Part shown: positions 1-13,618 of the stretch, in pieces
Numbering within the stretch: position 1 is the first letter of the stretch
How the letters are laid out: every line of letters begins with the position of its first letter
NCBI GenBank assembly: GCA_027064305.1
Contig: JAMOPY010000013.1
Coordinates: 1-14,593, forward strand
Direction: 5' to 3'
DNA from: Methanobacteriota archaeon
GTDB lineage: Archaea > JAADCQ01 > Methanopyri > Methanopyrales > Methanopyraceae
Length of the DNA: 14,593 nt
Made by a program: the position numbers and the translations under genes
The notes under the pieces: model-generated
What the model saw: only the letters and a program-made list of their open reading frames with translations
Database searches by the model: none
Told to the model about the DNA's origin: nothing

Positions 1-298
1 GCCGCCCGGAGAGCCGCTCCGCGAGCACCCGGGGCACGCCGCCCATGGCGTCGATCACCAGCACGTCGGTGCGGGACAGCTCGCGGTCCACCACGTCCCA
101 GGGGATCCTGGAAACGTCCTCCGGCTGCTTCGGAACCGGGTAAACGCTGACGGATACCCCCGCCTCCCGGGCCGCCTCGTGCACCCCGGTCAGCGGCGCG
201 TTCGTGAACAGGACCACGTGAACGGCGCCCACGGGCCCGCAGAACGGCGAGACCAGCGCCACCAGCGCTAAAATTAAGCGAAACGCTTTTACATCCAA
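1..298 (-). CDS. Exported protein, 5' part only (runs off the left edge); possibly the N-terminus of a CobN/Mg-chelatase-like surface protein
   Basis: Not in the ORF track; translated by hand. TTG at 298 (in-frame alternative TTG at 304) opens MDVKAFRLILALVALVSPFCGPVGA|VHVVLFTNAPLTGVHEAAREAGVSVSVYPVPKQPEDVSRIPWDVVDRELSRTDVLVIDAMGGVPRVLAERLSGR with no stop before base 1. Signal peptide is clear (K/R, hydrophobic core, V-G-A). The CobN-like guess rests only on the alpha/beta pattern (DVLVIDAMG) and context, so it is weak. Confidence 0.75.
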   Translation of the reverse strand, partial: MDVKAFRLILALVALVSPFCGPVGAVHVVLFTNAPLTGVHEAAREAGVSVSVYPVPKQPEDVSRIPWDVVDRELSRTDVLVIDAMGGVPRVLAERLSGR

Positions 299-364: not shown

Positions 365-1927
365 GTGAGGCGGCTGATTCTCGCCCTCACCGCCGCCCTC
401 TGCCTCGCGGGGGCGGCGGCCGCGCACCCGGTGAACTGGGGACCGGTCATCGACAAGGCCGCGCGCTACTGGGTGGCCCTAGACGAGGCCAACCGGCTGT
501 CCCAGCAGGCGAAGGAGGGCGACCCACGGTACTACCTGTTCTCGGGCAAGAACCTCCAGCTGCACGTGTCCAAGGAGTGCGTGTACTGGACGGCCAAGTA
601 CGGTCACGCGAGGTGGGAGTCGTCCGGCGAGGTGATCTACGGGACCTACTCGGCGCTGTCCTCGATCTACGCCGCGCTGCTGAGCGGAGAGGCGCACGTC
701 AAGGACTGGCCCGAGCCCTACCGGTCCCGGATGGCGACCGCGGTGACCACCGCCCTCGCCAAGCTCCTGTCGCTGCAGCACAAGGACGGTGGCTGGGGCT
801 GGAAGGTGATCCTATCCTCGGGCACGACCCGGTTCCCATCCGGCAAGGGGCACGTCCTGAGGACGGCGCAGATCCTGGCCGACGTGGTGATCCCCGCCCT
901 GCGGCTGAACATCCGGGAGGTCACGCTGAACGGCGCCCGGTACGACGTGGCCAAGTGCGCGCAGGCGGCCGTGCGGTTCCTCCTCGACCAGCAGCTGGGA
1001 GACGGTGGATACAGCGCGAACCGGACGTGGTCGAAGACGGAGGACCCGCTGTACACGGCCCAGGCCCTACGGGCCCTGTGCGAGGCCTACCGGTACCGGG
1101 ACCTGATCGGACTGAGCGAGGCCACGGTGAACCAGATCAAGCAGGCGATCCGGAAGGCCGTGCAGTGGCTCGAATCCCACCAGAACCCGCCGAACAGCAG
1201 GGAGGGGCCGAACCTGTGGGAGATGGAGTCCGCCGCGATCATGGGCTCCCGGTACGCGCCGCCCTCGGAGGCGACGATCCTGCTCGGACTGATCGACGCG
1301 TACTCCCTCGCGGACGAGCTGGGCCTGGACAAGAACAAGCTGGCCGACTGCATCAACCGGGCCCTGAAGGCCCTCGTGGACTGGGCGGCGAAGTGCCGGA
1401 GCCACTCGGTGGTGCAGTTCGACGGCAAGAAGGCCGTCGGCTGGGCGTACTCCAGCACCCGACTGTCGGGCGTGGGCCCGTACGTGGTCCACACGGCCCG
1501 CGTGCTCATGGCGCTGACCCTCGCCCAGCGACTGGGACTGGGGAACGACGCGATACGGGAGCTCAACCAGCTCGGGGCGACGATGGAGAGCGAGCAGGAG
1601 TGGCTGTACCATGAGTGCGTGCAGTACGACGGGCTGGCCGCGTTCCCCTACCCGAACCGGGAGAACTTCGAGCGGGTGAGCGCCTCCTCGCAGATGTACG
1701 GCACCCTCTGCGCGGTGGCGTTCTCCCACCCCGAGGTGTTCCTCCAGCGGACCACCGCGGACGTGCACCGGCTGATCCCCAACGTCGGCGCGACGGAGCG
1801 GGGCACCAGCGAGACCGGCAAGGGCGGTGAAAAGACCGGCGCGAAGGGGACCCGGGGGACCCACGGGATCCCGGTCCACCCGCTGGCGGTGGCCGTCGCG
1901 CTGGCCCTCCTCCGACGCCGGCGCTAG
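365..1927 (+). CDS. Secreted, C-terminally anchored prenyltransferase/squalene-cyclase-repeat (alpha/alpha barrel) protein
   Basis: GTG start after GGGGGAGG. Signal peptide MRRLILALTAALCLAGAAAA. QW-type repeats LLSLQHKDGGWG, FLLDQQLGDGGYS and WLESHQNP. G/K/T-rich linker, then GIPVHPLAVAVALALLRRRR. Confidence 0.85.
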   Translation: MRRLILALTAALCLAGAAAAHPVNWGPVIDKAARYWVALDEANRLSQQAKEGDPRYYLFSGKNLQLHVSKECVYWTAKYGHARWESSGEVIYGTYSALSSIYAALLSGEAHVKDWPEPYRSRMATAVTTALAKLLSLQHKDGGWGWKVILSSGTTRFPSGKGHVLRTAQILADVVIPALRLNIREVTLNGARYDVAKCAQAAVRFLLDQQLGDGGYSANRTWSKTEDPLYTAQALRALCEAYRYRDLIGLSEATVNQIKQAIRKAVQWLESHQNPPNSREGPNLWEMESAAIMGSRYAPPSEATILLGLIDAYSLADELGLDKNKLADCINRALKALVDWAAKCRSHSVVQFDGKKAVGWAYSSTRLSGVGPYVVHTARVLMALTLAQRLGLGNDAIRELNQLGATMESEQEWLYHECVQYDGLAAFPYPNRENFERVSASSQMYGTLCAVAFSHPEVFLQRTTADVHRLIPNVGATERGTSETGKGGEKTGAKGTRGTHGIPVHPLAVAVALALLRRRR

Positions 1928-1989: not shown

Positions 1990-2075
1990 GACTACTAAAC
2001 CATCTTTTATTATTACCGAAGATGTGTTAACCTAAGTTCACCGGTTCGAACCGATTCTAAGCTTATTATTCAGTA
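1990..2075 (+). promoter_or_regulatory. AT-rich promoter/operator region of 2109..3653
   Basis: TTATTATT twice (2007-2014, 2063-2070), inverted repeat CATCTT-N12-AAGATG (2001-2024) and perfect palindrome CGGTTCGAACCG (2042-2053), in an otherwise very GC-rich window. Confidence 0.6.
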
Positions 2076-2108
2076 AGGGACGGCGGCGCTCCCGGGGGGT
2101 CCACCCAC

Positions 2109-3653
2109 GTGAGACCCCTGGCCGTGCTCCTCGCCGCCCTGACGGCCCTGATGGGGCCCGCGCTGGCGGAGGAGGAGAGCTTCAAGGTGGCCGTGGTGCT
2201 GCCGTACCACGGCAGCTACGACCCGCACTGGGTGTACAAGGCCCACCAGCTGCCGGAGAAGCTCCAGGAGTACCTGTCGGCGACCTTCAGCGAGGGCTAC
2301 GACATCAAGGTGTACCCGGGCGAGTTCGAGACGTTCGGTGTGACCGAGGTCACGCTGCAGGGCGGCAAGACGTACGAGATCCACCAGGAGTCGATCCGGA
2401 CGGAGGAGGAGACCCTGGAGACGGAGTTCGGGTACGCGCTGAAGCAGGCGGCGCAGTTCACGAACAAGGGTAAGGACGGGCTGATCGTGATCCTGCCGGC
2501 GTTCCTGAACCGGGGCGGTCAGCACCAGGGCGTGGAGATCCCGGAGCTGATCGAGCGGGTGCTGGTGGAGGACCAGAAGGTCCCGAGGTACGCGTACGTG
2601 TACCAGCAGTTCGGCATCGCGTCCTGGGACCGGCAGGACGACCTGGGCGTCATCCCGGAGCTGATGTACAAGAACGTCGAGGCAGAGGAGGGTAAGCAGC
2701 TGGTGAACATCTCAGACTCCAACCTGCAGAGCCTGCTGAGTGGCATCCAGAACCCCACACTAGGGGACCTGATCAATACGGTCAAGAACAAGAACGAGCT
2801 CGGACTGCTGGTGATCGCGTTCGGCACGCTGAGGGTCAGCTACTGGCAGGACTACAAGGCGAACATCGAGTACGTGCTCAAGCGCCTTGCGGAGAAGCTC
2901 GGGATCGACCGGAGCAAGGCCAGGTTCTTCGCCTTCAACAACCCGGAGATCGGTCCGGAGAAGTGGGAGCAGTCTCGGTGGGACATCAGGTACAACAACT
3001 TCAAGCAGGTGATGCAGGAGCTGAACAAGGCCGGCGTGAAGTACGTGCTGGTGGTTCCGTACCTGACGGTGACGGGGATCACGGACCGGAAGCTGTTCGA
3101 GGGTAACCCGAAGCAGGGCGAGCCGGACGTGTACAACTACAAGGAGGCCATCCTGAGGCACTTCAACGCGCAGCTCGCGGCCGAGACCCAGGCTAACGAG
3201 GAGAAGTACACGTACGTGCAGAATGGTAAACAGAAGAACGTGACGGTCTACATCAACACCCGCATTTACAGGATCCCCAAGGATCAGCTGGGCACGAACG
3301 ATGACATGTACATCATCTACGTGCGGCGGGGCGTGCTGGACGCTCCGGGCGCCGTGGAGGCGGTGGCGAAGGTGCTGGCGAGCTACATCTCGCTGCAGCT
3401 GCCGACGTGGCGGCACCGGTACGAGGCGATGAAGGAGCTGGAGGGTGACGTCTCGTCCGTGAGCCGGGAGGTGCAGCAGGTGAAGCAGCGGGTGGAGGGC
3501 CTGCAGGGTAAGGTGAAGGGTCTGGAGAAGCGGGTGAGTAAGCTGGAGAAGCAGGGTGGTAAGGGTCAGCAGGGTGGTAAGAGCGGTAAGGGTCCGGTGC
3601 TACCGGTGCTGGCGCTGGTCGCGCTGCTCCCGCTGGCGGCGCGCCGGCGCTAG
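2109..3653 (+). CDS. Secreted, C-terminally anchored class II chelatase-fold (CbiX/CbiK-like) protein with coiled-coil stalk
   Basis: Signal peptide MRPLAVLLAALTALMGPALA. Domain 1 has VVLPYHGSYDP (H34) and IVILPAFLNRGGQH.GVEIP (H139), resembling CbiX/CfbA GHGS and VPxFL..G.H...DIP. Domain 2 has LLVIAFGT and GVKYVLVVPYL..G, resembling CbiK. Heptads VSSVSREVQQVKQRVEGLQGKVKGLEKRVSKLEK, then tail GPVLPVLALVALLPLAARRR. Confidence 0.8.
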   Translation: MRPLAVLLAALTALMGPALAEEESFKVAVVLPYHGSYDPHWVYKAHQLPEKLQEYLSATFSEGYDIKVYPGEFETFGVTEVTLQGGKTYEIHQESIRTEEETLETEFGYALKQAAQFTNKGKDGLIVILPAFLNRGGQHQGVEIPELIERVLVEDQKVPRYAYVYQQFGIASWDRQDDLGVIPELMYKNVEAEEGKQLVNISDSNLQSLLSGIQNPTLGDLINTVKNKNELGLLVIAFGTLRVSYWQDYKANIEYVLKRLAEKLGIDRSKARFFAFNNPEIGPEKWEQSRWDIRYNNFKQVMQELNKAGVKYVLVVPYLTVTGITDRKLFEGNPKQGEPDVYNYKEAILRHFNAQLAAETQANEEKYTYVQNGKQKNVTVYINTRIYRIPKDQLGTNDDMYIIYVRRGVLDAPGAVEAVAKVLASYISLQLPTWRHRYEAMKELEGDVSSVSREVQQVKQRVEGLQGKVKGLEKRVSKLEKQGGKGQQGGKSGKGPVLPVLALVALLPLAARRR

Positions 3654-3676
3654 CCCTCCCCTACGCCCCCTTCTCG

Positions 3677-3701
3677 AATCGTTACGGGTCTTGTAACGGT
3701 T
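3677..3701. repeat. 25-bp imperfect palindrome, copy 1
   Basis: AATCGTTACGGGTCTTGTAACGGTT between convergent genes; 19/25 identical to 11557-11581. Confidence 0.7.
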
Positions 3702-3713
3702 GGCGCGGGCGGT

Positions 3714-4523
3714 TCAGGGGGCCTCGGCGAGTTCGTAGGGGTCGTGGTGGACGCGGACCTCGCGGCCGGGTCCGGTGAGTTCGAGCTCCGGGGCGTAGCC
3801 GAGGGATTCGAGGTCCTCGTAGAGGGGGAGGTGGCCGGAGAGGTCGCAGATCTCGGCGTTGAGGGCGCCGGCGAGGTGGGCGGCGGCCTTGACGGAGACG
3901 GCGCTCTCGAGTTCGGTGAGGATGGCGATTTTCAGGCCCTGTTCGCGGGCCTTGCGGCCGAGGAGGATGGTGTCGAGGAAGCCGACGCGTTGGACGGTGA
4001 GGGCGACGCCGTCGGCGGCGTCGAGGGCGTGGAGTTCGTCCTCGGTGCGCACCTTGACGTACACGGGGACGTCGGCGTCGAACTCGCGGGGGGTGAGCGC
4101 GATGACCTCGGCGTCGGTGGCGGCGCGGATCTCCTCGAGGGTGCGTTCGTTGGGGTGGTCGGGGAAGTCGAGGAGGATGGTGTCGAAGTCGAGGGTGGAG
4201 ATGGCGGTGGCGTGGGGGGTGTCGGCGGGGATGCGGGCGGTGGTGTAGCCGGCGGTGAGGCCGTGCTGGGCCTCGCGGGGGCCGTCCTCGGGGTGGAGGC
4301 GGAGGGCGGATTGGAGGGTGCGGGGTTCGCCGCCGAGGATCTCGGTGAGGGGTAGGCCTTCGGAGCGGGCTTCGGCGTCGAGGATGGCCATCTCGTGGGC
4401 GGTGGTGGGGTCGTAGCCGAAGCCGAGGCCGGGGGTTCCGTCGGGGGTGTGGACGCGGCAGAGGTAGCCGGTCACGGGGCCGGCGGCAGCGTTTAAGGTG
4501 AGGCGGCGGGTCTCGGCGGTCAA
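3714..4523 (-). CDS. Degenerate enolase-superfamily protein (mandelate racemase/muconate lactonizing family, L-Ala-D/L-Glu epimerase-like)
   Basis: TTG start with GGGGAG SD. Capping-domain traces RVHTPDGTPGLG and EMAILDAEAR..GLPL..ILGG. C-terminal ESAVSVKAAAHLA and DLSGHLPLYED (compare DLDGPLLLxED). The catalytic KxK and most metal ligands are not recognisable. Confidence 0.75.
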   Translation of the reverse strand: MTAETRRLTLNAAAGPVTGYLCRVHTPDGTPGLGFGYDPTTAHEMAILDAEARSEGLPLTEILGGEPRTLQSALRLHPEDGPREAQHGLTAGYTTARIPADTPHATAISTLDFDTILLDFPDHPNERTLEEIRAATDAEVIALTPREFDADVPVYVKVRTEDELHALDAADGVALTVQRVGFLDTILLGRKAREQGLKIAILTELESAVSVKAAAHLAGALNAEICDLSGHLPLYEDLESLGYAPELELTGPGREVRVHHDPYELAEAP

Positions 4524-4555
4524 GGCGGTCTCCCCGCCCGTGGGGGTGAGGGGGT

Positions 4556-5953
4556 TTGAGTCGGGTTATAGTTGTCGGAGCGGGGAGCGCGGGTCGGTCG
4601 GTCGCGCGGTTGTTGAACCACGCGGGGTGCGAGGTGGTGGTGAACGACGTGCGGGAGTGGGAGGAGTTCACGTCGGAGGAGCGGGAGTACCTGGAGGTGT
4701 TGGAGCGGGAGGGGGTGGAGGTGGTCCTGGGGGGGCACGATCCGGGGCTGTTTGAGGCGGCGGACGCGGTCTTCGTCTCGCCCGCGATCCCGGAGGGTGC
4801 GGAGGGGCGGCGGTTGGCGGAGCGGGTGCCGGAGCGGATCACGGTGCGGGACGTGGCGGAGGTGTTGGGGAGTCTCTTTCCGGTTCCGGCCGTCGGGGTG
4901 ACGGGGACGAACGGGAAGACGACCACGACCTGGGCGATCGCGCACCTGTTGGAGGCGTGTGGGTACGACGTGTGGCGGTGCTCGTCCCTGGATCGTCACC
5001 TGGTGATCGAGGCGCTCGTGGAGGGGGTGGTGACGGGGGAGGTGGAGGGGTGCGACGTGGCGGTGGTGGAGCTGCCGCACGGGACGATCCGGTTGGCGTC
5101 GGGGATTCGGCTGGACGTGGGCGTGCTGACGAACGTCGCGCCGGAGCATTTGGACGAGTTCGGGGGGTCGTTCGAGCGGTACGTGCGTCGGAAGCTGACG
5201 ATCGTGGGGATGAGTGAGACGGTCGTGGCGGGGTACGACTGTCGGGAGCTGCGGGAGCGGTTGGAGGGGGCGGTGTGGTACTCCGTGCGGAGTGGGGAGG
5301 CGGACTACTTCGGGCGTCGGGTGGACGGGAGGTTGGTGGTGGAAGGGCCGGGGTGTCGGGTGGAGGCGGGGTTCCGGCTGCTGGGTTATTACGTGGAGAA
5401 CTGCACGGGGGCCGTGGCGGCCTGCCTGGAGTTCGGGGCGGATCCGGAGGGGGTGGAGGAGGGGCTCGAGACGTTCGAGGGAGTGCCGGGTCGGATGGAG
5501 TTGGTGGGGGAGTTCGCGGGGCGGGTCGCGTACCTGGACGCGGCGCACAACCCGGAGGGTCTGCGGGCGAGCCTGCCGCCGTTTCGGGAGTTGGCGGAGG
5601 AGCGTGGGGGTCGGTTGCTCGTGAGCGTGGATAACCCGGACACGGTGACGGAGCGGGATAAGCGGGAGTTCGGGCGGATCGTGGGGGAGTTCGCGGACTT
5701 CGTGGCGGCGAGTGGGTTCAACGAGACGTTGGAGCGGCTTGACATGGATGCGGCCCGGGAGGTGGTGCGCGGGGCGGAGGAGTCGGGCTGCGAGGGGGTG
5801 GCGGTGCGGTCGGTGGAGGAGGCGGCGCGGGAGGTCGCGAGGCGTTCCCGGGAGGGGGACGTGCTGCTGCACGTGGGTCCGGGGGTGGTGAACGCGTACG
5901 AGCGGGTGCGGCGGGCGTTCCTGCGCGGGCTGTCCGGGGTGCTGGGGGGTTAG
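4556..5953 (+). CDS. Mur ligase family protein (MurD-like architecture), probable pseudomurein peptide ligase
   Basis: TTG start after GGTGAGGGGG. Rossmann-like VVGAGSAG, FVSPAIP, P-loop GVTGTNGKTTT, VVE, LTNVAPEHLD, GVPGRME and DAAHNPEG. Confidence 0.92.
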   Translation: MSRVIVVGAGSAGRSVARLLNHAGCEVVVNDVREWEEFTSEEREYLEVLEREGVEVVLGGHDPGLFEAADAVFVSPAIPEGAEGRRLAERVPERITVRDVAEVLGSLFPVPAVGVTGTNGKTTTTWAIAHLLEACGYDVWRCSSLDRHLVIEALVEGVVTGEVEGCDVAVVELPHGTIRLASGIRLDVGVLTNVAPEHLDEFGGSFERYVRRKLTIVGMSETVVAGYDCRELRERLEGAVWYSVRSGEADYFGRRVDGRLVVEGPGCRVEAGFRLLGYYVENCTGAVAACLEFGADPEGVEEGLETFEGVPGRMELVGEFAGRVAYLDAAHNPEGLRASLPPFRELAEERGGRLLVSVDNPDTVTERDKREFGRIVGEFADFVAASGFNETLERLDMDAAREVVRGAEESGCEGVAVRSVEEAAREVARRSREGDVLLHVGPGVVNAYERVRRAFLRGLSGVLGG

Positions 5954-5956
5954 GGG

Positions 5957-7504
5957 TTGCGCCGGGAGGTGATCCGGCAGGGGTTGATCTACGCGTGCGA
6001 GGAGATGGGGGCGCACCTGCGTCGGAGCGCGTTCTCGCCCAACATTCGGGAGCGGGAGGATTTCTCCTGCGCGGTGTACGACGCGGAGGGGGAGCTCGTC
6101 GCGCAGGCGGAGCACATCCCGGTGCACCTGGGGTCCATGCGCTGGGCCGTTCGGGCGGTGCTGGAGGAGTTCGATCCGGGGGAGATGGAGCCCGGGGATG
6201 CGTTTCTAGTGAACGATCCGTACCGGGGCGGCACGCACCTGCCGGATCTGACCGTCGTCGCGCCGATCTTTCACGAGGGGGAGCCGCTGGGGTTCGCGGC
6301 GGTCCGCGCGCATCACGCGGACGTGGGCGGGAAGGCGCCGGGGAGCATGCCGCACGATGCGGAGGACGTGTACGCGGAGGGGCTGCGGATCCCGCCGGTC
6401 CGGCTGGCGGAGGGTGGGGAGCCTCGGGAGGAGTTGCTGCGGCTGGTCGAGGCCAACTCGCGCGGGGGGCGGGAGCGGCGGTACGACCTGATGGCGCAGC
6501 TCTCCGCCGCGCTGTTGGGCTGCGAGCGGGTGGGGGAGCTGGTGGAGGAGCACGGGGTGGAGGCGTTCCGGGAGGCGTGCGAGTGGGCGAAGGAGTACGC
6601 GGAGCGGCGCATGAGGCGGGCGATCGAGCGGCTGCCGGACGGGGAGTATCACGGGGCGGATCGGCTGGAGGGTGATGGGGTCTCGGACGGGGACGTGTGG
6701 ATCAAGGTGACCGTGAGCGTGGAGGGGGATGAGATCACGGTCGATTTCTCGGGGACGAGCGAGCAGGTGGACGGGCCGGTCAACGCCCCGTTGCCGGTGA
6801 CGTACTCGGCGGTCTTCTTCGTGCTCAAGGCCGCGCTGGACCCGGGGACGCCCGCGTCGGAGGGGGCGTACCGGCCCATTCGCGTGCGGGCTCCGGAGGG
6901 GACGGTGGTCAACCCGCGCCCGCCGGCCCCCGTGTGCGCGGGCAACGTGGAGACGTCGCAGCGCATCGTGGACGCGGTGCTGGACGCGCTGCGGGGGGCG
7001 ATCCCCGACCTGCCGGCCCACTCGCACGGGTCGATGAACAACGTGGCGATCGGGGGCCCGGACTTCGCGTACTACGAGACGATCGGTGGGGGCGCGGGGG
7101 CCTCCCCGGAGCGGGACGGGGAGAGCGCCGTGCACGTGTACCTGACCAACACGGCCAACACGCCGGTGGAGCACGTGGAGCGGGAGTACCCGATCCGGAT
7201 CCTGGAGTACACGGTCCGTCGGGGGAGCGGTGGTGCGGGGGAGCGGCGGGGCGGGGACGGGATCGTGCGCCGGTACCTGGCGCTGGAGCGGTGTCGGGTC
7301 ACGGTGCTGGGGGACAGGGTGGAGCGGGGTCCGAGGGGGGCGGAGGGCGGTGAGCCGGGCGCGCCCGCTGAGTACTTGGTGGAGCGGGCGGACGGGTCGG
7401 TGGAGCGGTTGGGGTCGAAGGATTCGACCGTGCTCGAGCCGGGTGACATGCTCGTCGTGAAGACGGCCGGAGGCGGTGGGTACGGGCGGGTGGGAAAGGC
7501 ATGA
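5957..7504 (+). CDS. hyuB: Hydantoinase B / 5-oxoprolinase subunit B family protein
   Basis: EEMG..LRRSAFSPNIREREDFSCA, HIPVHLGSM, NDPYRGGTHLPD, HHADVGG..PGSM, EGLRIPP, GNVETSQR, YETIGGGAGA, NTPVE, and terminal TAGGGGYG. Confidence 0.93.
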   Translation: MRREVIRQGLIYACEEMGAHLRRSAFSPNIREREDFSCAVYDAEGELVAQAEHIPVHLGSMRWAVRAVLEEFDPGEMEPGDAFLVNDPYRGGTHLPDLTVVAPIFHEGEPLGFAAVRAHHADVGGKAPGSMPHDAEDVYAEGLRIPPVRLAEGGEPREELLRLVEANSRGGRERRYDLMAQLSAALLGCERVGELVEEHGVEAFREACEWAKEYAERRMRRAIERLPDGEYHGADRLEGDGVSDGDVWIKVTVSVEGDEITVDFSGTSEQVDGPVNAPLPVTYSAVFFVLKAALDPGTPASEGAYRPIRVRAPEGTVVNPRPPAPVCAGNVETSQRIVDAVLDALRGAIPDLPAHSHGSMNNVAIGGPDFAYYETIGGGAGASPERDGESAVHVYLTNTANTPVEHVEREYPIRILEYTVRRGSGGAGERRGGDGIVRRYLALERCRVTVLGDRVERGPRGAEGGEPGAPAEYLVERADGSVERLGSKDSTVLEPGDMLVVKTAGGGGYGRVGKA

Positions 7505-7788
7505 GGATCTCCGAGTTCCAGCGGTTGATGGACGAGATTTACGGGGAGAAGGACCGGGAGCGGGGCCCGGAGCGGACGCTGCTCTGGCTGGTGGAGGAGG
7601 TGGGGGAGCTGGCGGAGGCGGTGCGTCGCGGGGACGAGGAGGGGATTCGAGAGGAGCTGGCGGATGTGATCGCGTGGGCCTTCTCGCTGGCCAACGTGGT
7701 CGGGGTGGACGTGGAGGAGCTGCTGAGGGAAAAGTACCCGGGGAAGTGCCCGAAGTGCGGGCGGAAGCCCTGCCGGTGCGGCGAGTGA
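7501..7788 (+). CDS. MazG-like nucleotide pyrophosphohydrolase with Cys-rich tail
   Basis: ATGA overlap with hyuB. LVEEVGELAEA...EELADV...SLAN motif. C-terminal CPKCGRKPCRC. Confidence 0.9.
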   Translation: MRISEFQRLMDEIYGEKDRERGPERTLLWLVEEVGELAEAVRRGDEEGIREELADVIAWAFSLANVVGVDVEELLREKYPGKCPKCGRKPCRCGE

Positions 7789-8900
7789 GGGATGGGGTGA
7801 TCACGGCGGATCTGGGGTTGGTGGGCGAGGGTCTGGAGCCCTACGCGCCGGTGACGGTGGAGGTGCGGGACGGGGTGGTTCGTCGGGTCGAGGAGGGTCG
7901 CGAGCGGGGTGGTCGGTCCTACGACGCGCTCCTTCCGGCCCCGTTCAACGCCCACGTTCACGCGGCGGATTGGGCGTTTCGTCACGCGGGTCTGGGGCGG
8001 CCGCTGGAGCGGGTGGTGGCCCCGCCGGACGGGTTGAAGCACCGGCTGTTGAGGGAGGTGGATAAGGGGGAGCTGGAGGGGGCGATCGCGGGGTTTCTGG
8101 CGGCGTCGTTGCGGTTCGGCTGCCCGGGCGTGGCGGACTTTCGGGAGGGTGGTCCGGAGGGGGTGCGGTTGGGGCTGAGGGCGGCGGGCCGGGTGGGGTT
8201 CCCGGAATACGTGCCGATGGGTCGTCCGGGCTCGTGGGAGCCGGAGCGGTTGGAGGGGGAGCTGCGGCGGTTGCGGGCGGTGACGGAGTTCGTGGGCGTG
8301 CCGGACGTGCACCTGCCGGGGGAGGCGTTGGAGGCGGTGCGGGACTCGGGGCTGCGGGTGTTCGTGCACGTGAACGAGAGCTGGCGGTCGGTGCGGGAGT
8401 GCGTGCGGGAGCACGGGGTGACGGAGCTGGAGCGGGCGGTGGAGCTGCTGGAGCCGGACGGGGTGGTGCACTGCGTGGTGTTGACGGGCCGGGATGAGGA
8501 GCTGCTCAGGGAGTTGGATCCCTTGGTCGTGCTCTGCCCGCGCTCGAACGAGTACTTCGAGCTCGGGGTGCCGGAGGTGGAGCGGCTGCGGGGGTTGAGG
8601 CTCGCGCTGGGCACGGACAACGGGATGTGCGTGGAGCCGGACGTGTGGGAGGAGGCCCGGTACGCCTGGCTGCGGTTGGGGATGCGGCCGGTGGACGCGC
8701 TTCGGGCGGCGACGGTGACGCCGGCCCGGTTCTTCGGACTTCCGGTGTTGGAGGAGGGGGAGCGGTTGCGGGCGGTGGGGCTAAAGGGCGTGCCGGCGCT
8801 GGATCGGGTGGCGGGGGAGGGGTTGAACCGGGTGGTGGCTCACCTGCTGCAGGTGGTGAAGTTGGCCCGGGTGGAGGTGCTGCTGGGGGAGGGTGGTTGA
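7785..8900 (+). CDS. Metal-dependent amidohydrolase (SsnA/TRZ-ATZ deaminase-like)
   Basis: Start re-called to the GTG overlapping the MazG stop (GTGA); the track start at 7476 overlaps MazG entirely. Motifs PFNAHVHAAD (HxH), DFREGG, VHVNE, VHCV, CPRSN and LGTDNG. Confidence 0.88.
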   Translation: MRDGVITADLGLVGEGLEPYAPVTVEVRDGVVRRVEEGRERGGRSYDALLPAPFNAHVHAADWAFRHAGLGRPLERVVAPPDGLKHRLLREVDKGELEGAIAGFLAASLRFGCPGVADFREGGPEGVRLGLRAAGRVGFPEYVPMGRPGSWEPERLEGELRRLRAVTEFVGVPDVHLPGEALEAVRDSGLRVFVHVNESWRSVRECVREHGVTELERAVELLEPDGVVHCVVLTGRDEELLRELDPLVVLCPRSNEYFELGVPEVERLRGLRLALGTDNGMCVEPDVWEEARYAWLRLGMRPVDALRAATVTPARFFGLPVLEEGERLRAVGLKGVPALDRVAGEGLNRVVAHLLQVVKLARVEVLLGEGG

Positions 8901-9289
8901 TGGTTCGGTACGTCGTGCTGATGGACGGTTCGGATCCCTCGTTTCGGGCGCTGGAGTACGCGCGGGAGCGGACGGAGGACGTGATCGCGGTGTACCTGAT
9001 CGACGCGCGGGCGTTCAAGGGGTTGAACGAGGAGATGGCGCGGGCGTTGAGGGAGTTCATGCGTCAGGAGGCGTCCCTGATCGAGGAGCTGGTGAGGCGG
9101 GAGTACGGGGCGCGGTTCGAGGTGGTGGAGGGGGAGGGTCCGGAGGCCGTGATGGAGTTCGCGAAGGAGGCGGGCGCCGACGCGGTGGTGGTGGGCGTGG
9201 GCAGCGTGCCGGGGTTCGAGAAGATCACGCTCCGGCGCGGGATCGAGGAGTGCGTGCGGGATGTGCCGGTGATCTTGGTCCCGGGTTAG
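8900..9289 (+). CDS. Universal stress protein (UspA family)
   Basis: Start re-called to the ATG in the TGATG overlap. MVRYVVLMDGSDPSFRALEYA...EGEGPEAVMEFAKEAGADAVVVG...VPVILV; 129 aa. Confidence 0.88.
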   Translation: MVRYVVLMDGSDPSFRALEYARERTEDVIAVYLIDARAFKGLNEEMARALREFMRQEASLIEELVRREYGARFEVVEGEGPEAVMEFAKEAGADAVVVGVGSVPGFEKITLRRGIEECVRDVPVILVPG

Positions 9290-10887
9290 CCGAGCTCCTT
9301 GCCCATGTACGGGCCCACGCGCTCGTAGCCCAACCGTCGGTAGTACTCCCGGGTGCCGATGGCGCTGATCACGAGGATCCTCTCCGCGCCGAGCTCGCTC
9401 TCCGCGAGCTCCTCCGCCTTCTTCATCAGCCGCTCGCCGAATCCGCGGTGCTGCACCGCCTTCGAGTCCCGCTCGCCGAGGGGGACGGTGGGTCCGACGA
9501 CCTTCAGCTCGCGCACGATGGCGGTCTCCGGGTCGATCTCGGGGCGGTGCGCGTGCTCCGTGGGCTTCCGTAGGCGCAGGTACCCGAGGATCGCGTCCGC
9601 CTCCGGGTCCTCGTAGGCCAGGAAGTAGTCGACGCCGCCCCGCCACGTCCGCTCCCGGATGATGCGCAGCTCGGCCCGCTCCGGGTCGACCTCGGCTCCC
9701 TCGCGCATTCGGTGACCCGCCTCCCGGCACCGGATGCACCGGCACTTCCAGCCGCGCTCCTCCATGTACTCGTGGACGAGCTGCCGCAGGTTCGTCTTTC
9801 GGATGCCCGCCGCGGCCAGGTGCGCCGGGATGTCCCGCTGCACGCGCATGATCCGGCAGTACTCGGGGATGTACCGGCGCTTGGCCTCCGCGATCACCCG
9901 CACGGCCGTTTCCTCGTCGTACGGCTCGTACTCGCCCCGCTTCCACAGGTCGTAGAGGGGCGTGTCCTCGAAGACCATGCACGGGTAAATCTTCAGCATG
10001 TCCGGCTTGAACCGCGGGTCCTTGAACAGGCGCTTGAACATGCGGAGGTCCCGGTCGGGATCGGACCCGGGCAGGCCCGGCATCACGTGGTAGCACACCT
10101 TGAGGCCGGCGTCCTTCAGGATCCGGGTGGCCTCGATCGTGTCCCGGACCGTGTGGCCCCGCTCGACGCGCTTGAGGATGAAGTCGTAGATCGTCTGCAC
10201 GCCCACCTCGACGCGCGTGGCGCCCAGCCGGAGCATCCGGTCCACGTGCTCCTCCTTGCAGTAATCCGGGCGGGTCTCGAACGTGATCCCCACGGGCCGG
10301 TGCTCGGCGGTCTCCGCGTGCTTCTGCGCCTCCTCGATCGTGAGCGCGTCCTTGCCCGTCAGCGCGTTGAGGCACTCCCGCACGAACCACTCCTGGTAGC
10401 AGAGGGGCATGGCCGGGAACGTGCCGCCCATGATGATGAGCTCGACCTTGTCCGTCGGGTGACCCGAGATCTCCAGCTGGCGCAGCCGGGCCTCCACCTG
10501 GCGGCGCGGGTGGAAGTCGTGCTCCTTGGCCCGACGACCGGCCGGCTCCTTGCCCGTGTAGCTCTGCGGGACGCCCCGCTCCGGCCCGCCCGGGCAGTAC
10601 GCGCAGCGCCCGTGCGGGCAGGGGTACGGCTTCGCCATCACGGCGACGACGGCCACGCCCGAGATCGACCGGACGGGCTTCTTCACCACGATCTCGCGGA
10701 GCTTCCTCCGCTCCTCGGGCGTCGCGTGCTCCAGCACGTCCGCGTCCGTCGGGAACTTGGACAGCCGGTACTTACGACAGACCTCCCGCTTCGCGTCCTG
10801 CAGCTCCCTCTTCGTCCGGATCTCGCCCGAGAGCATTTTTTCGATCAGCTCGCGGCAGGCCCGCTCGAAGGCCTCGGTCTCGGACAA
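9286..10887 (-). CDS. elp3: Elp3, radical SAM + GNAT tRNA uridine(34) carboxymethyltransferase/acetyltransferase
   Basis: KPVRSISGVAVVAVM, CPHGRCAYCPGGP (radical SAM Cys motif), PQSYTGKEPA, MGGTF, ETRPD, KIYP, RVQRDIP, CRCIRCRE, QHRGFG, ISAIGTREYYRRLGY. TTG start with GGGGTGAG SD. Confidence 0.97.
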   Translation of the reverse strand: MSETEAFERACRELIEKMLSGEIRTKRELQDAKREVCRKYRLSKFPTDADVLEHATPEERRKLREIVVKKPVRSISGVAVVAVMAKPYPCPHGRCAYCPGGPERGVPQSYTGKEPAGRRAKEHDFHPRRQVEARLRQLEISGHPTDKVELIIMGGTFPAMPLCYQEWFVRECLNALTGKDALTIEEAQKHAETAEHRPVGITFETRPDYCKEEHVDRMLRLGATRVEVGVQTIYDFILKRVERGHTVRDTIEATRILKDAGLKVCYHVMPGLPGSDPDRDLRMFKRLFKDPRFKPDMLKIYPCMVFEDTPLYDLWKRGEYEPYDEETAVRVIAEAKRRYIPEYCRIMRVQRDIPAHLAAAGIRKTNLRQLVHEYMEERGWKCRCIRCREAGHRMREGAEVDPERAELRIIRERTWRGGVDYFLAYEDPEADAILGYLRLRKPTEHAHRPEIDPETAIVRELKVVGPTVPLGERDSKAVQHRGFGERLMKKAEELAESELGAERILVISAIGTREYYRRLGYERVGPYMGKELG

Positions 10888-11473: not shown

Positions 11474-11551
<78 letters not shown>

Positions 11552-11592: not shown

Positions 11593-12450
11593 TCAGCGCA
11601 GGGAGGGAAACCGATCCCGCCCGCACGCGACGTCGGCCAGCGCCATCCGGGCCAACCCCCGAGCCACGTTCTCCACGGCGAGCTCGTCCCGAACGCGGGC
11701 CAGCCGGCGGATCCCCTCCACGGCCTCCGCGGCCAGCCGGCGGGGGGAGTCGGCGTCCCGGTACCGCTTCGCGTGCGGGCACTCCGGCTCGACCCTAGGC
11801 AGGCCCAACCGCTCGCGGATCTCCCGGTAGATCCGGGCCGTGCGGAGCTCGCTGACCACGTACAGGGGACGGAGGAGGTAGGCGTCATCCTCCTCCAGGT
11901 ACTCCGCGGGCGGGAACGTGCCCGCTCCCCGGGCCCGGTTCGCGCTCATCAGCAGCGTCTCCAGCGCGTCCTCGGCCGTGTGCCCGTACACGACCCAGTC
12001 GTACCGCTCCGCGAGCTCCCGGCGGCGCAGGGCGGAGCAAACCTTGCACGGCGGCTTGTTCATCTCCTCCGCCAGGTCCTCCACGTCCTCGGACGGTCGC
12101 ACGAACTTCAGCCTGTAGCCCAACTCCTCGGCCATCCGCTCCAGGTCCCGCCGATACGGGCGCCAGATCTCCACCCCTCGGACGCGCACGTCGACGGTCA
12201 CGAGCCGCGCCTCCGCGTCCCACCCCTCGAGGAAGGGTCGAAGGGCGAGCGCGCAGGTGAAGCTGTCCTTGCCCCCGCTGAAACCGATCGCCAGGTCGCC
12301 CTCGGGCTCGCCGAACGCCTCGGAGACCGCCTCCAGCACGGCGGAGACGTTCTCGTGGACCCTCCGGTAATCCTCCCCGTACACGGAGTTGGGGGCGAGC
12401 GGCCTCGCGTCCCAGGACACGGTCAACCCTTTCAGCCTCGTGACCCGCAC
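11593..12450 (-). CDS. TtcA/TtuA(Ctu1/NcsA)-like PP-loop ATPase, probable tRNA thiolation enzyme
   Basis: GFSGGKDS (PP-loop), PCKVCSALRR (CxxC), GHTAED, LRPLY and CPHA. Start re-called to GTG 12450 after GAGGGGG; the track's extra N-terminus overlaps the sRNA candidate. Confidence 0.87.
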   Translation of the reverse strand: MRVTRLKGLTVSWDARPLAPNSVYGEDYRRVHENVSAVLEAVSEAFGEPEGDLAIGFSGGKDSFTCALALRPFLEGWDAEARLVTVDVRVRGVEIWRPYRRDLERMAEELGYRLKFVRPSEDVEDLAEEMNKPPCKVCSALRRRELAERYDWVVYGHTAEDALETLLMSANRARGAGTFPPAEYLEEDDAYLLRPLYVVSELRTARIYREIRERLGLPRVEPECPHAKRYRDADSPRRLAAEAVEGIRRLARVRDELAVENVARGLARMALADVACGRDRFPSLR

Positions 12451-12457
12451 GGGCCGT

Positions 12458-12525
12458 CCCCCTCGGCAGCGGTCTCCCCGATCATCCCGCCCTCGGGTCA
12501 CCCCCGCCCTCTCGTCATCCGGGGG
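12458..12525 (-). ncRNA. Candidate C/D box guide sRNA
   Basis: Minus strand reads CCCCC-GG-ATGACGA(C)-GAGGGCGGGG-GTGA(D')-CCCGAGGGCGGG-ATGATCG(C')-GGGAGACCGCTG-CCGA(D)-GGGGG: 68 nt, 5-bp terminal stem, guides of 10 and 12 nt. Confidence 0.75.
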
Positions 12526-12535
12526 TGAGGGGCGC

Positions 12536-13618
12536 GTGTGGAGGGCGGAGCGACGGCTGGCGCTGGTCTACGACGAGGAGTACCTGGAGCACGAGCAGCA
12601 CCCCACGCACCCGGAGCGGCGGGAGCGCCTCTCCTACACCGTGGACCGGCTGCGCGAGGAGGGCGTGCTCGAGGTGGAGGGGATCGAGCTGGTCGAGCCG
12701 AGGCCGGCGGGGAGGGAGGAGCTTGAGCTGGTGCACGAGCCGGAGCACGTGGAACTGATCCGCCGGATGAGCGAGCAGGGTGGCGGGGTCATCGACGCGG
12801 ACACGATCGTCACGGGTCGCACGTACGAGCAGGCGAGGCTGGCGGCGGGCGGGGCCCTCCGGGCGGTCGAGCTGACGGTGAGCGGGGAGTACGACGTCGC
12901 CTTCGCCATGGTGAGGCCGCCCGGGCACCACGCGGGCCGGGCGAAGGCGGCGGGCTTCTGCTACTTCAACAACGTTGCGATCGCCGCGGAGTACGCGCTC
13001 CGGGAGCTCGGCGTGGAGCGGATCGCGATCCTGGACTGGGACGCGCACCACGGGGACGGGACGCAGGAGATCTTCTACGACCGGGACGACGTGCTGTACG
13101 TCTCCATTCACCAGGACGGTAGGACCCTGTACCCGGGCACCGGGTTCCCGCATGAGGTGGGTGAGGGGAGGGGCGAGGGGTACACCGTGAACATCCCGGT
13201 ACCCCCGGGCTCGGGGGACCGCACCTACCGACGGGCCTTCGAGCGGATCATCGACCCGATCGTGCGCGAGTACGGGCCCGACCTGATCCTGATCTCCGCG
13301 GGCCAGGACTGCCACTTCACCGACCCGATCACGAACCTGTCGGTGACCGCCCGCGGCTACGAGTGGATGATGCGGAGGGCGGTGAAGCTGGCCGAGGAGG
13401 TGAACGCCCTAGGTCCCGTGGCGGTGCTGGAGGGCGGCTACTCCGTGGAGGACGGGCTCCCGTACACCAACCTGGCCGTCATCTGCGGGCTGGCCGGGCT
13501 GCCCACGGACCTGCGCGAGCCGGTCGGGTCACCGGAGGAGAACCCGGAGGGCCCCGAGCGGGTGGAGGAGGTGGCACGGCGCCTCTCGGGGTACTGGGAG
13601 GTCCTCAGCCGGTCCTGA
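12536..13618 (+). CDS. Zn-dependent histone deacetylase family protein (HDAC/AcuC/HdaH-like)
   Basis: Start re-called to GTG 12536 after GGGGGTGAGG. HPERRERL, RPPGHHA, GFCYFNN, LDWDAHHGDGTQ, SIHQ..LYPGTG, SAGQD and LEGGY. Confidence 0.95.
   Translation: MWRAERRLALVYDEEYLEHEQHPTHPERRERLSYTVDRLREEGVLEVEGIELVEPRPAGREELELVHEPEHVELIRRMSEQGGGVIDADTIVTGRTYEQARLAAGGALRAVELTVSGEYDVAFAMVRPPGHHAGRAKAAGFCYFNNVAIAAEYALRELGVERIAILDWDAHHGDGTQEIFYDRDDVLYVSIHQDGRTLYPGTGFPHEVGEGRGEGYTVNIPVPPGSGDRTYRRAFERIIDPIVREYGPDLILISAGQDCHFTDPITNLSVTARGYEWMMRRAVKLAEEVNALGPVAVLEGGYSVEDGLPYTNLAVICGLAGLPTDLREPVGSPEENPEGPERVEEVARRLSGYWEVLSRS

Follow-up and report, generated by a model that had tools for sequence, protein, structure and literature searches.

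A membrane-tethered, exported relative of cobalt- and nickel-inserting enzymes in a heat-loving methanogen suggests metal handling outside the cell

The class II chelatases of tetrapyrroles work without ATP and are built in several ways. In SirB and CbiX(L) a single chain forms both Rossmann-like halves, and only the N-terminal one has the His pair and the active site; in CbiK (Se-CbiK) the active site is in the C-terminal half (PMC4063343). SirB and CbiX(L) are cytoplasmic and ~250–300 amino acids (aa) long. The archaeal CfbA and CbiX(S) are cytoplasmic, symmetric homodimers of short chains (122 positions in the NCBIfam profile) with two equivalent sites; CfbA binds Ni via His9, Glu42 and His75 (PMC8179277). 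Exported homologues are already known in a few bacteria, where they are linked to heme and iron piracy or to surface pigments. CbiK-P of Desulfovibrio vulgaris and IhtB/FetB of Porphyromonas gingivalis have class II chelatase folds outside the cytoplasm; they are heme- or metal-linked, belong to the bacterial CbiK family (PF06180), and are soluble periplasmic proteins or lipoproteins. IhtB/FetB is a surface-exposed CbiK-fold lipoprotein and a proposed reverse ferrochelatase (PMC12094164), the surface Mn-protoporphyrin of P. gingivalis depends on FetB, and both FetB and the periplasmic CbiK of D. vulgaris bind metallated porphyrins (PMC13065792). Here we describe an archaeal variant, P0001, encoded in contig JAMOPY010000013.1 of a Methanopyraceae archaeon (assembly GCA_027064305.1), a stretch of 14,593 nucleotides (nt) that is called the window throughout.

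P0001 is exported, tethered to the membrane and related to the enzymes that insert cobalt or nickel into vitamin-B12-type rings, and its gene adjoins those of two further exported proteins; this suggests that the methanogen handles metal outside the cell. What is new in comparison with the bacterial proteins is the use of the other half for the active site, two beta inserts, a three-part tail, and a conserved exported partner of the CobN family. A search of the literature, thin in its coverage of subscription journals, returned no description of an archaeal extracytoplasmic class II chelatase. Methanogens require much nickel, cobalt and iron, and to our knowledge little is understood of how hyperthermophilic methanogens draw these metals from sulfide-rich fluids. 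The unit described here joins three exported proteins, two of which belong to chelatase families, and it is conserved; it offers a concrete, testable system with parts small enough to express. Does P0001 exchange metal, or does it only bind? At somewhat less than even odds (about 0.45), we read it as an extracytoplasmic, ATP-independent site for the binding and exchange of metals or tetrapyrroles that would work with the CobN-like protein.

Chelatase fold and its two unequal halves

The gene and the parts of its folded core are as follows.

2109..3653, + strand: coding sequence of the exported class II chelatase-like protein P0001 (GTG start, 514 codons)
2175..2753, + strand: domain 1, residues 23–215, a Rossmann-like half (secondary structure of the model, Pfam and NCBIfam matches, invariance)
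2208–2210, 2328–2330 and 2523–2525, + strand: H34, E74 and H139 of domain 1
2325–2423, + strand: beta-meander insert of domain 1, residues 73–105 (model secondary structure)
2754..3398, + strand: domain 2, residues 216–430, a Rossmann-like half without the His pair (separate Pfam CbiX match, model structure)
2820–2822 and 3084–3086, + strand: F238 and D326, in the places of the His pair in domain 2
3057–3110, + strand: invariant motif P317-Y-x-T-V-T-G-I-T-D-R-x-L-F-E-G-N-P334, the strongest of the family
3162–3323, + strand: five-strand beta insert of domain 2, residues 352–405 (model secondary structure)

The open reading frame (ORF) is exactly that delimited in a preliminary description of this DNA, made by a model from the letters and the ORFs, which had proposed a CbiX/CbiK-fold protein displayed outside the cell on a coiled-coil stalk. 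That the gene is real is shown by 12 relatives of 43–100% identity with aligned starts and ends, recovered in a word-indexed search; every member with a source name is labelled hypothetical. The closest relatives of the window's proteins come from Methanopyrus and Methanopyraceae genomes. The family appears to be confined to Methanopyraceae, because an exhaustive search of 1.84 billion protein representatives with the family profile returned nothing but the family itself, as 3 representatives.

Membership in the chelatases is seen in both profile and structure. The whole protein scores 26.5 bits with Pfam PF01903 (CbiX), above the cut-off of 22, and the profile also matches each half by itself. 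Among the relatives, just 4 of 10 reach E ≤ 0.01. An AlphaFold model with a mean predicted local distance difference test (pLDDT) of 81.2 and a predicted template-modelling score (pTM) of 0.77, in which most 10-residue blocks between 41 and 440 exceed 85, folds into two beta-alpha-beta halves, with the pair of Rossmann-like alpha/beta domains and parallel four-strand sheets facing a cleft that mark class II chelatases. When the model was compared with the PDB by Foldseek, 14 of the 45 rows listed were class II chelatases (probability 0.99–1.00, target-normalised template-modelling score (TM) 0.43–0.57). The best TM, 0.57, was reached by HemH and the periplasmic CbiK 2xvz, followed by FetB 9b86 (0.47) and SirB 6jv6 (0.46, probability 1.00); HemH/CpfC entries were also among the matches listed. 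Language-model neighbours, which serve as a lead only, were CbiK/CbiX clusters at 0.85–0.86, the nearest being a Bacteroidota CbiK 'heme-binding protein'. The model thus shows a two-domain, single-chain homologue of the class II chelatases. The chelatase-like fold that had been proposed is supported, and both bacterial parallels drawn at that time, Desulfovibrio periplasmic CbiK and Porphyromonas IhtB/FetB, are among the structural matches.

The other 31 rows have TM at or below 0.30 and are mostly periplasmic binding proteins, some with better E-values. They bear on a different explanation, in which P0001 is a non-catalytic, tethered substrate-binding protein: it would trap either a metal ion or a metal-tetrapyrrole and deliver it to a transporter whose gene lies elsewhere, in the manner of C-terminally anchored solute-binding proteins of archaea. 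The lowest E-values go to such folds (4iil, 7e-5; binders of glucose/ribose and of riboflavin), and class II chelatases and binding proteins are structurally related (PMC12583661). Binding of metallated porphyrins by the D. vulgaris and P. gingivalis proteins, cited above, and the order of parts, from signal peptide through domain and linker to C-terminal anchor, would also fit a binder. However, the global matches to type I periplasmic binding proteins (E 7e-5 to 1e-3) reach TM of only 0.17–0.30 against 0.43–0.57 for the chelatases, the catalytic-type His pair and Glu are invariant, and no transporter gene was seen nearby, in the window or the scanned parts of a related locus, L002. We consider a role in binding alone rather unlikely.

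Where would the metal site be? Conservation was counted in an alignment of 10 family members. H34 stands in Y-H-G-S directly after strand 25–33 of the AlphaFold model, and H139 closes P130-A-F-L-N-R-G-G-Q-H at a helix start after strand 124–128. Both are invariant in all 10 sequences, as is E74 after strand 2, and the same holds for all 6 His of the mature core (H34, H40, H46, H92, H139 and H351). The context, with His after strand 1, Glu after strand 2 and His after strand 3, is that of the ligands in CfbA, and the two His correspond to those that bind metal in CfbA, CbiX(S) and SirB. Pfam CbiX matches domain 1 alone with 14.4 bits (protein 119–155 to profile 48–83), and NCBIfam CfbA aligns protein 116–150 with profile 52–84, which puts H139 at about profile position 75. 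H34 and H139 are expected to lie close in space, because they follow strands 1 and 3, which are neighbours in the beta2-beta1-beta3-beta4 sheet described for the class II chelatase FetB (PMC13065792).

Domain 2 matches Pfam CbiX alone with 17.4 bits (protein 296–324 to profile 38–66). At the His-equivalent places it has A-F238-G-T and T325-D326-R327, both invariant, and its one invariant His, H351, is elsewhere. The Pfam coordinates equate P130 with P317 and set H139 opposite D326, give or take one residue. These equivalences rest on Pfam coordinates and secondary structure, since a profile-profile comparison of the halves by hhalign gave a probability of 0.3% and an internal duplication is undetectable by sequence. 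The His-less half is not a decayed copy, judging from the alignment, because it is the more conserved one (81 of 215 columns invariant, against 57 of 193 in domain 1) and carries the strongest motif of the family. A His pair in domain 1 and its absence from the same places in domain 2 had both been claimed from the sequence, and both claims hold.

The cleft is asymmetric and, from its sequence, of the SirB/CbiX(L) type, because the site is kept in the N-terminal half, unlike that of CbiK, and the His pair has been lost from the C-terminal half. P0001 differs from SirB and CbiX(L) in being exported, anchored and 514 aa long, with two beta-sheet inserts. It falls outside CbiK (NF047852), at 13.2 bits against a cut-off of 400 and with its His pair in the N-terminal half, and it differs from the exported bacterial members in being archaeal and C-terminally anchored. 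It likewise falls outside CfbA/CbiX(S), with two unequal halves fused in one exported, asymmetric chain behind a signal peptide. Could it nevertheless be an ordinary cytoplasmic CbiX, CfbA or SirB of B12, F430 or siroheme biosynthesis, as the passing Pfam score might be taken to say? The architecture (signal peptide, C-terminal anchor, two large beta inserts, 514 aa) contradicts this, the NCBIfam CfbA score (NF033198) is 13.3 bits against 120, and the family is limited to one archaeal lineage, so that a housekeeping enzyme is scarcely credible.

Export signal, spacer and tail

The segments on either side of the folded core are listed here.

2109..2168, + strand: signal peptide, residues 1–20, with A-L-A as cleavage-type site ahead of EEES (sequence reading, hydropathy, low-pLDDT helix 2–13)
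3429..3554, + strand: six heptads, residues 441–482, a coiled-coil segment specific to the clade that continues the last helix of domain 2 (register; helix 415–483 in the model)
3522–3581, + strand: tandem repeat of 21 nt in 3.0 copies, whose unit encodes LEKQGGK, spanning the heptad end and the linker and varying in length among close relatives
3555..3593, + strand: flexible linker rich in G, K and Q, residues 483–495, of different length in P0001, P0003 and P0004
3594..3650, + strand: C-terminal tail, residues 496–514, in three parts: a P-V-x-P motif, ~13 hydrophobic residues and RRR (alignment, hydropathy)

The first residues, MRPLAVLLAALTALMGPALA ahead of EEES, show the basic n-region, hydrophobic core and A-x-A site (here A-L-A) of a Sec signal peptide. 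The call was made by eye from the sequence, and the pattern is kept in 10 of 10 aligned relatives. The Kyte-Doolittle hydropathy of 15-residue windows exceeds 1.6 solely at residues 1–20, 231–245 and 493–512. The 19 residues of the tail are PVLPVLALVALLPLAARRR. By its sequence the tail may be a membrane anchor or a sorting signal.

A tail of P-V/L-x-P, a short hydrophobic stretch and RRR(R) is common to both of the neighbouring exported proteins (1868–1924 and 3594–3650, + strand). Three loci were compared: the window, L001 and L002. In each, a tail of P-x-x-P, hydrophobic stretch and RRR is found on the toroid protein described below and the CbiX-like protein only, and it looks like a lineage-specific sorting signal. 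Against curated models it scores below the cut-offs, with 19.8 against 27 for JDVT-CTERM and 14.7 or 15.0 against 15.85 for GC_trans_RRR (MYXO-CTERM). Given a signal peptide and a hydrophobic tail ending in RRR, the folded part should face outside, on the outer face of the membrane, tethered through a linker of variable length.

The coiled coil is regular in P0001, with M441, V448, V455, V462, V469 and V476 at the a positions and L444, V451, V458, L465, L472 and L479 at the d positions of 42 residues. The segment gives weak matches to coiled-coil families and trimer peptides, and the single P0001 sequence, searched against the PDB, found coiled-coil peptides only. Heptad runs of 9 or more occur in 3 of 10 relatives, all of the window's clade; 2 of 10 have runs of 5–6 and 5 of 10 have runs of 4 or fewer. 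Two M. kandleri-type proteins have about three heptads, and five relatives have linkers rich in Q, G, A and T or almost nothing. The segment between W434 and the tail can be as short as 17 and as long as 62 residues, and none of its 55 columns is invariant. The coiled coil of the window's clade behaves as a variable, adjustable spacer and not as a core part of the family, because long heptad runs are found in 3 of 10 only and the linker length varies. The preliminary description was therefore right about the signal peptide, the anchoring tail and a heptad repeat of about 40 aa; its view of a stalk that oligomerises the protein and projects it through the wall is not supported by the comparison.

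In composition the exported protein is high in K, N, Q, Y and I, and Cys is absent. The G+C content of its gene region (2001–3500) is 0.61–0.62, against 0.69–0.73 in the flanks and ~70% for the window.

The three-gene unit

Upstream of the chelatase-like gene, and in the two related loci, we find the following.

365..1927, + strand: upstream partner P0015, 520 aa, an exported (alpha/alpha)6-toroid protein (signal peptide, tail, model)
2..298, − strand: N-terminus of a divergent CobN/ChlH/HmuS-family protein with a TTG start at 298 and a signal/anchor helix, the gene being cut by the window edge
L002 2828–8230 and L001 2–1519, − strand: CobN-family homologues, divergent from the toroid and CbiX-like pair
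2026..2070, + strand: own promoter region of the CbiX-like gene, with the box GTTRAC..TRGTTCACCG, then CTAA and the TATA-like CTTATTATT ~40 nt before the GTG

The arrangement is the same in 3 of 3 loci: the toroid gene lies directly upstream of the CbiX-like gene on the same strand, and the CobN-family gene is divergent. The CbiX-like gene forms a unit with genes for an exported toroid and for an exported, membrane-anchored CobN/ChlH/HmuS-family protein. Equal record sizes, our only ground for this, would also place relatives of the CbiX-like and toroid proteins from M. kandleri and KOL6 on shared contigs (P0009 and P0021 at 110177; P0012 and P0022 at 1430309).

The CobN-family fragment of the window shares 57% identity with the beginning of the L002 protein, which has 1800 aa, and the same gene is present in L001. 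The L002 protein matches Pfam CobN-Mg_chel at E 8.5e-157 and has an N-terminal signal/anchor helix, a low-complexity linker of ~250 aa and a C-terminal transmembrane helix. It matches the structures of CobN (E 4.9e-68), ChlH (E 1e-64) and HmuS 9d26 (E 1.9e-55). In Bacteroides, HmuS is a CobN homologue anchored in the membrane and a proven de-chelatase, which takes the iron out of heme and requires no ATP (PMC12583661). The neighbour resembles it in having both N- and C-terminal membrane helices; it differs in being slightly closer to CobN and ChlH, and no HmuY, HmuR, HmuT, HmuU or HmuV is found here. Other methanogens offer further parallels: a CobN paralogue (CobN1) and a NikR homologue appear in M. 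marburgensis only under nickel limitation (PMC12350162), and two CobN-like (BtuS-like) proteins of M. barkeri respond to the Fe/S source (PMC10846266).

The toroid protein P0015 ends in I-P-V-H-P, a hydrophobic stretch and RRRR, contains the motif SLQxxDGGWGW and is terpene-cyclase/TED-like. Within the top 50 Foldseek rows its model matches complement TED domains, AGE epimerases, MmpH and terpene cyclases. A word-indexed search for its relatives gave 7 matches, all Methanopyraceae-type records. A transcobalamin-like identity was dropped, there being no cobalamin carrier in those 50 rows.

The toroid raises the question of whether the chelatase fold now serves a purpose that has nothing to do with metals or tetrapyrroles, such as the biogenesis of pseudomurein or the envelope, with the toroid acting on glycan. 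P0015 does match toroids that act on glycans (MmpH, AGE-family epimerases), alongside complement TED, the His-less half of P0001 is the more conserved one, and the pseudomurein ligase gene pMurD1 lies 0.9 kb downstream in both the window and L002. Yet a convergent gene separates pMurD1, which belongs to an orientation block of its own, the chelatase-typical His/Glu/His triad is invariant, and the conserved CobN-family neighbour points to tetrapyrroles or metals. Such re-use seems improbable to us.

The promoter region of the CbiX-like gene is AT-rich, and an alignment of upstream sequences shows its box conserved in the three loci (L001 ~3190–3235, L002 ~9862–9908). It may be the site of a shared regulator. 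In L002 the box is a perfect 16-bp palindrome, GTTCACCGCGGTGAAC, and GTTAACC occurs also at 326–332, within the promoter that lies between the diverging CobN-like and toroid genes. As search words, GTTRACS and GTTCACCG are insufficiently specific in the GC-rich window. An Rfam search near the gene showed no riboswitch, and its sole match was the tRNA at 11474–11548.

Proposed role and the genes beyond the unit

How might an exchange site on the cell surface work? The H34/E74/H139 site would bind a divalent transition metal; Ni, Co and Fe are those most needed by a hydrogenotrophic methanogen. The cleft between the halves would bind a tetrapyrrole, whose carboxylates may be held by the invariant R290, R294, R327, R350, R385, R406 and R407. 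Metal would then be exchanged between solution and tetrapyrrole outside the cell, by de-chelation or chelation, which is feasible there because class II chemistry requires no ATP. Metal or ring would travel onward inside a surface module to which the CobN-like protein also belongs, and overall P0001 would serve to acquire metal or to salvage tetrapyrroles. The preliminary description had suggested a surface metal or tetrapyrrole receptor, or a reverse chelatase; the fold, His pair, export and anchor agree with that suggestion, the conserved neighbourhood with an exported CobN/HmuS-family protein strengthens it, and a role of the stalk as functional core is not supported.

Several points weigh against an exchange site. 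The sequence similarity to chelatases is weak and thin: the family profile found 0 matches at E ≤ 10 among PDB chains, and the NCBIfam scores given above lie far under their cut-offs. The alignment behind the AlphaFold model is shallow (10 sequences), and the lowest Foldseek E-values belong to the binding-protein folds, though with poor TM. The synteny of the unit may be inherited and not selected, since only close relatives show the three genes together, and pMurD1 and the hydantoinase genes keep their synteny equally well. Neither the window nor the scanned parts of L002's 21 kb (all but the last ~4.7 kb) showed a transporter gene. Finally, salvage is not obviously needed, because Methanopyrus presumably makes its own tetrapyrroles.

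Might the reaction instead run forward? A chelatase outside the cell could load Ni or Co into a surface-held tetrapyrrole, as a metallophore-like trap or a surface pigment comparable to the FetB-dependent Mn-protoporphyrin. The metal site is intact, its residues being invariant, and the chemistry proceeds without ATP; but no exported tetrapyrrole or importer is known or was seen here, and nothing in the three loci speaks of ring export. We give this version a low probability.

A bolder form of the exchange reading makes the three tethered proteins (CobN/HmuS-like, toroid and CbiX-like) one extracellular tetrapyrrole-metal exchange machine of the Methanopyraceae. It would remove Ni, Co or Fe from metalloporphyrins in the environment, nickel geoporphyrins of hydrothermal sediments for example, or load scarce Ni or Co into a surface ring as a metallophore for import. 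We regard the machine as distinctly unlikely, yet if true it would supply a first function for many orphan archaeal CobN paralogues.

Beyond the unit, a 269-aa ORF (3714–4523, − strand) is convergent with the CbiX-like gene and adjoins pMurD1, and its position is kept in L002 (11472–12290). It has weak matches in the enolase superfamily (muconate cycloisomerase, E 0.0012; N-acetyl-D-Glu racemase, 0.0095; L-Ala-D/L-Glu epimerase, 0.15). With 575 bits, pMurD1, the pseudomurein peptide ligase (4556–5953, + strand), falls a little short of the NCBIfam cut-off of 610. Hydantoinase B (5957–7504) and an amidohydrolase (7476–8900) come next, and the order in L002 is identical. Positions 3500–9500 have a strong positive GC skew (0.25–0.44) and a negative AT skew over + strand genes. 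Further on are an Elp3 radical-SAM/GNAT tRNA-modification enzyme (9286–10887, − strand), the tRNA already mentioned (+ strand) and a histone-deacetylase-family gene (12389–13618, + strand), all apparently unrelated.

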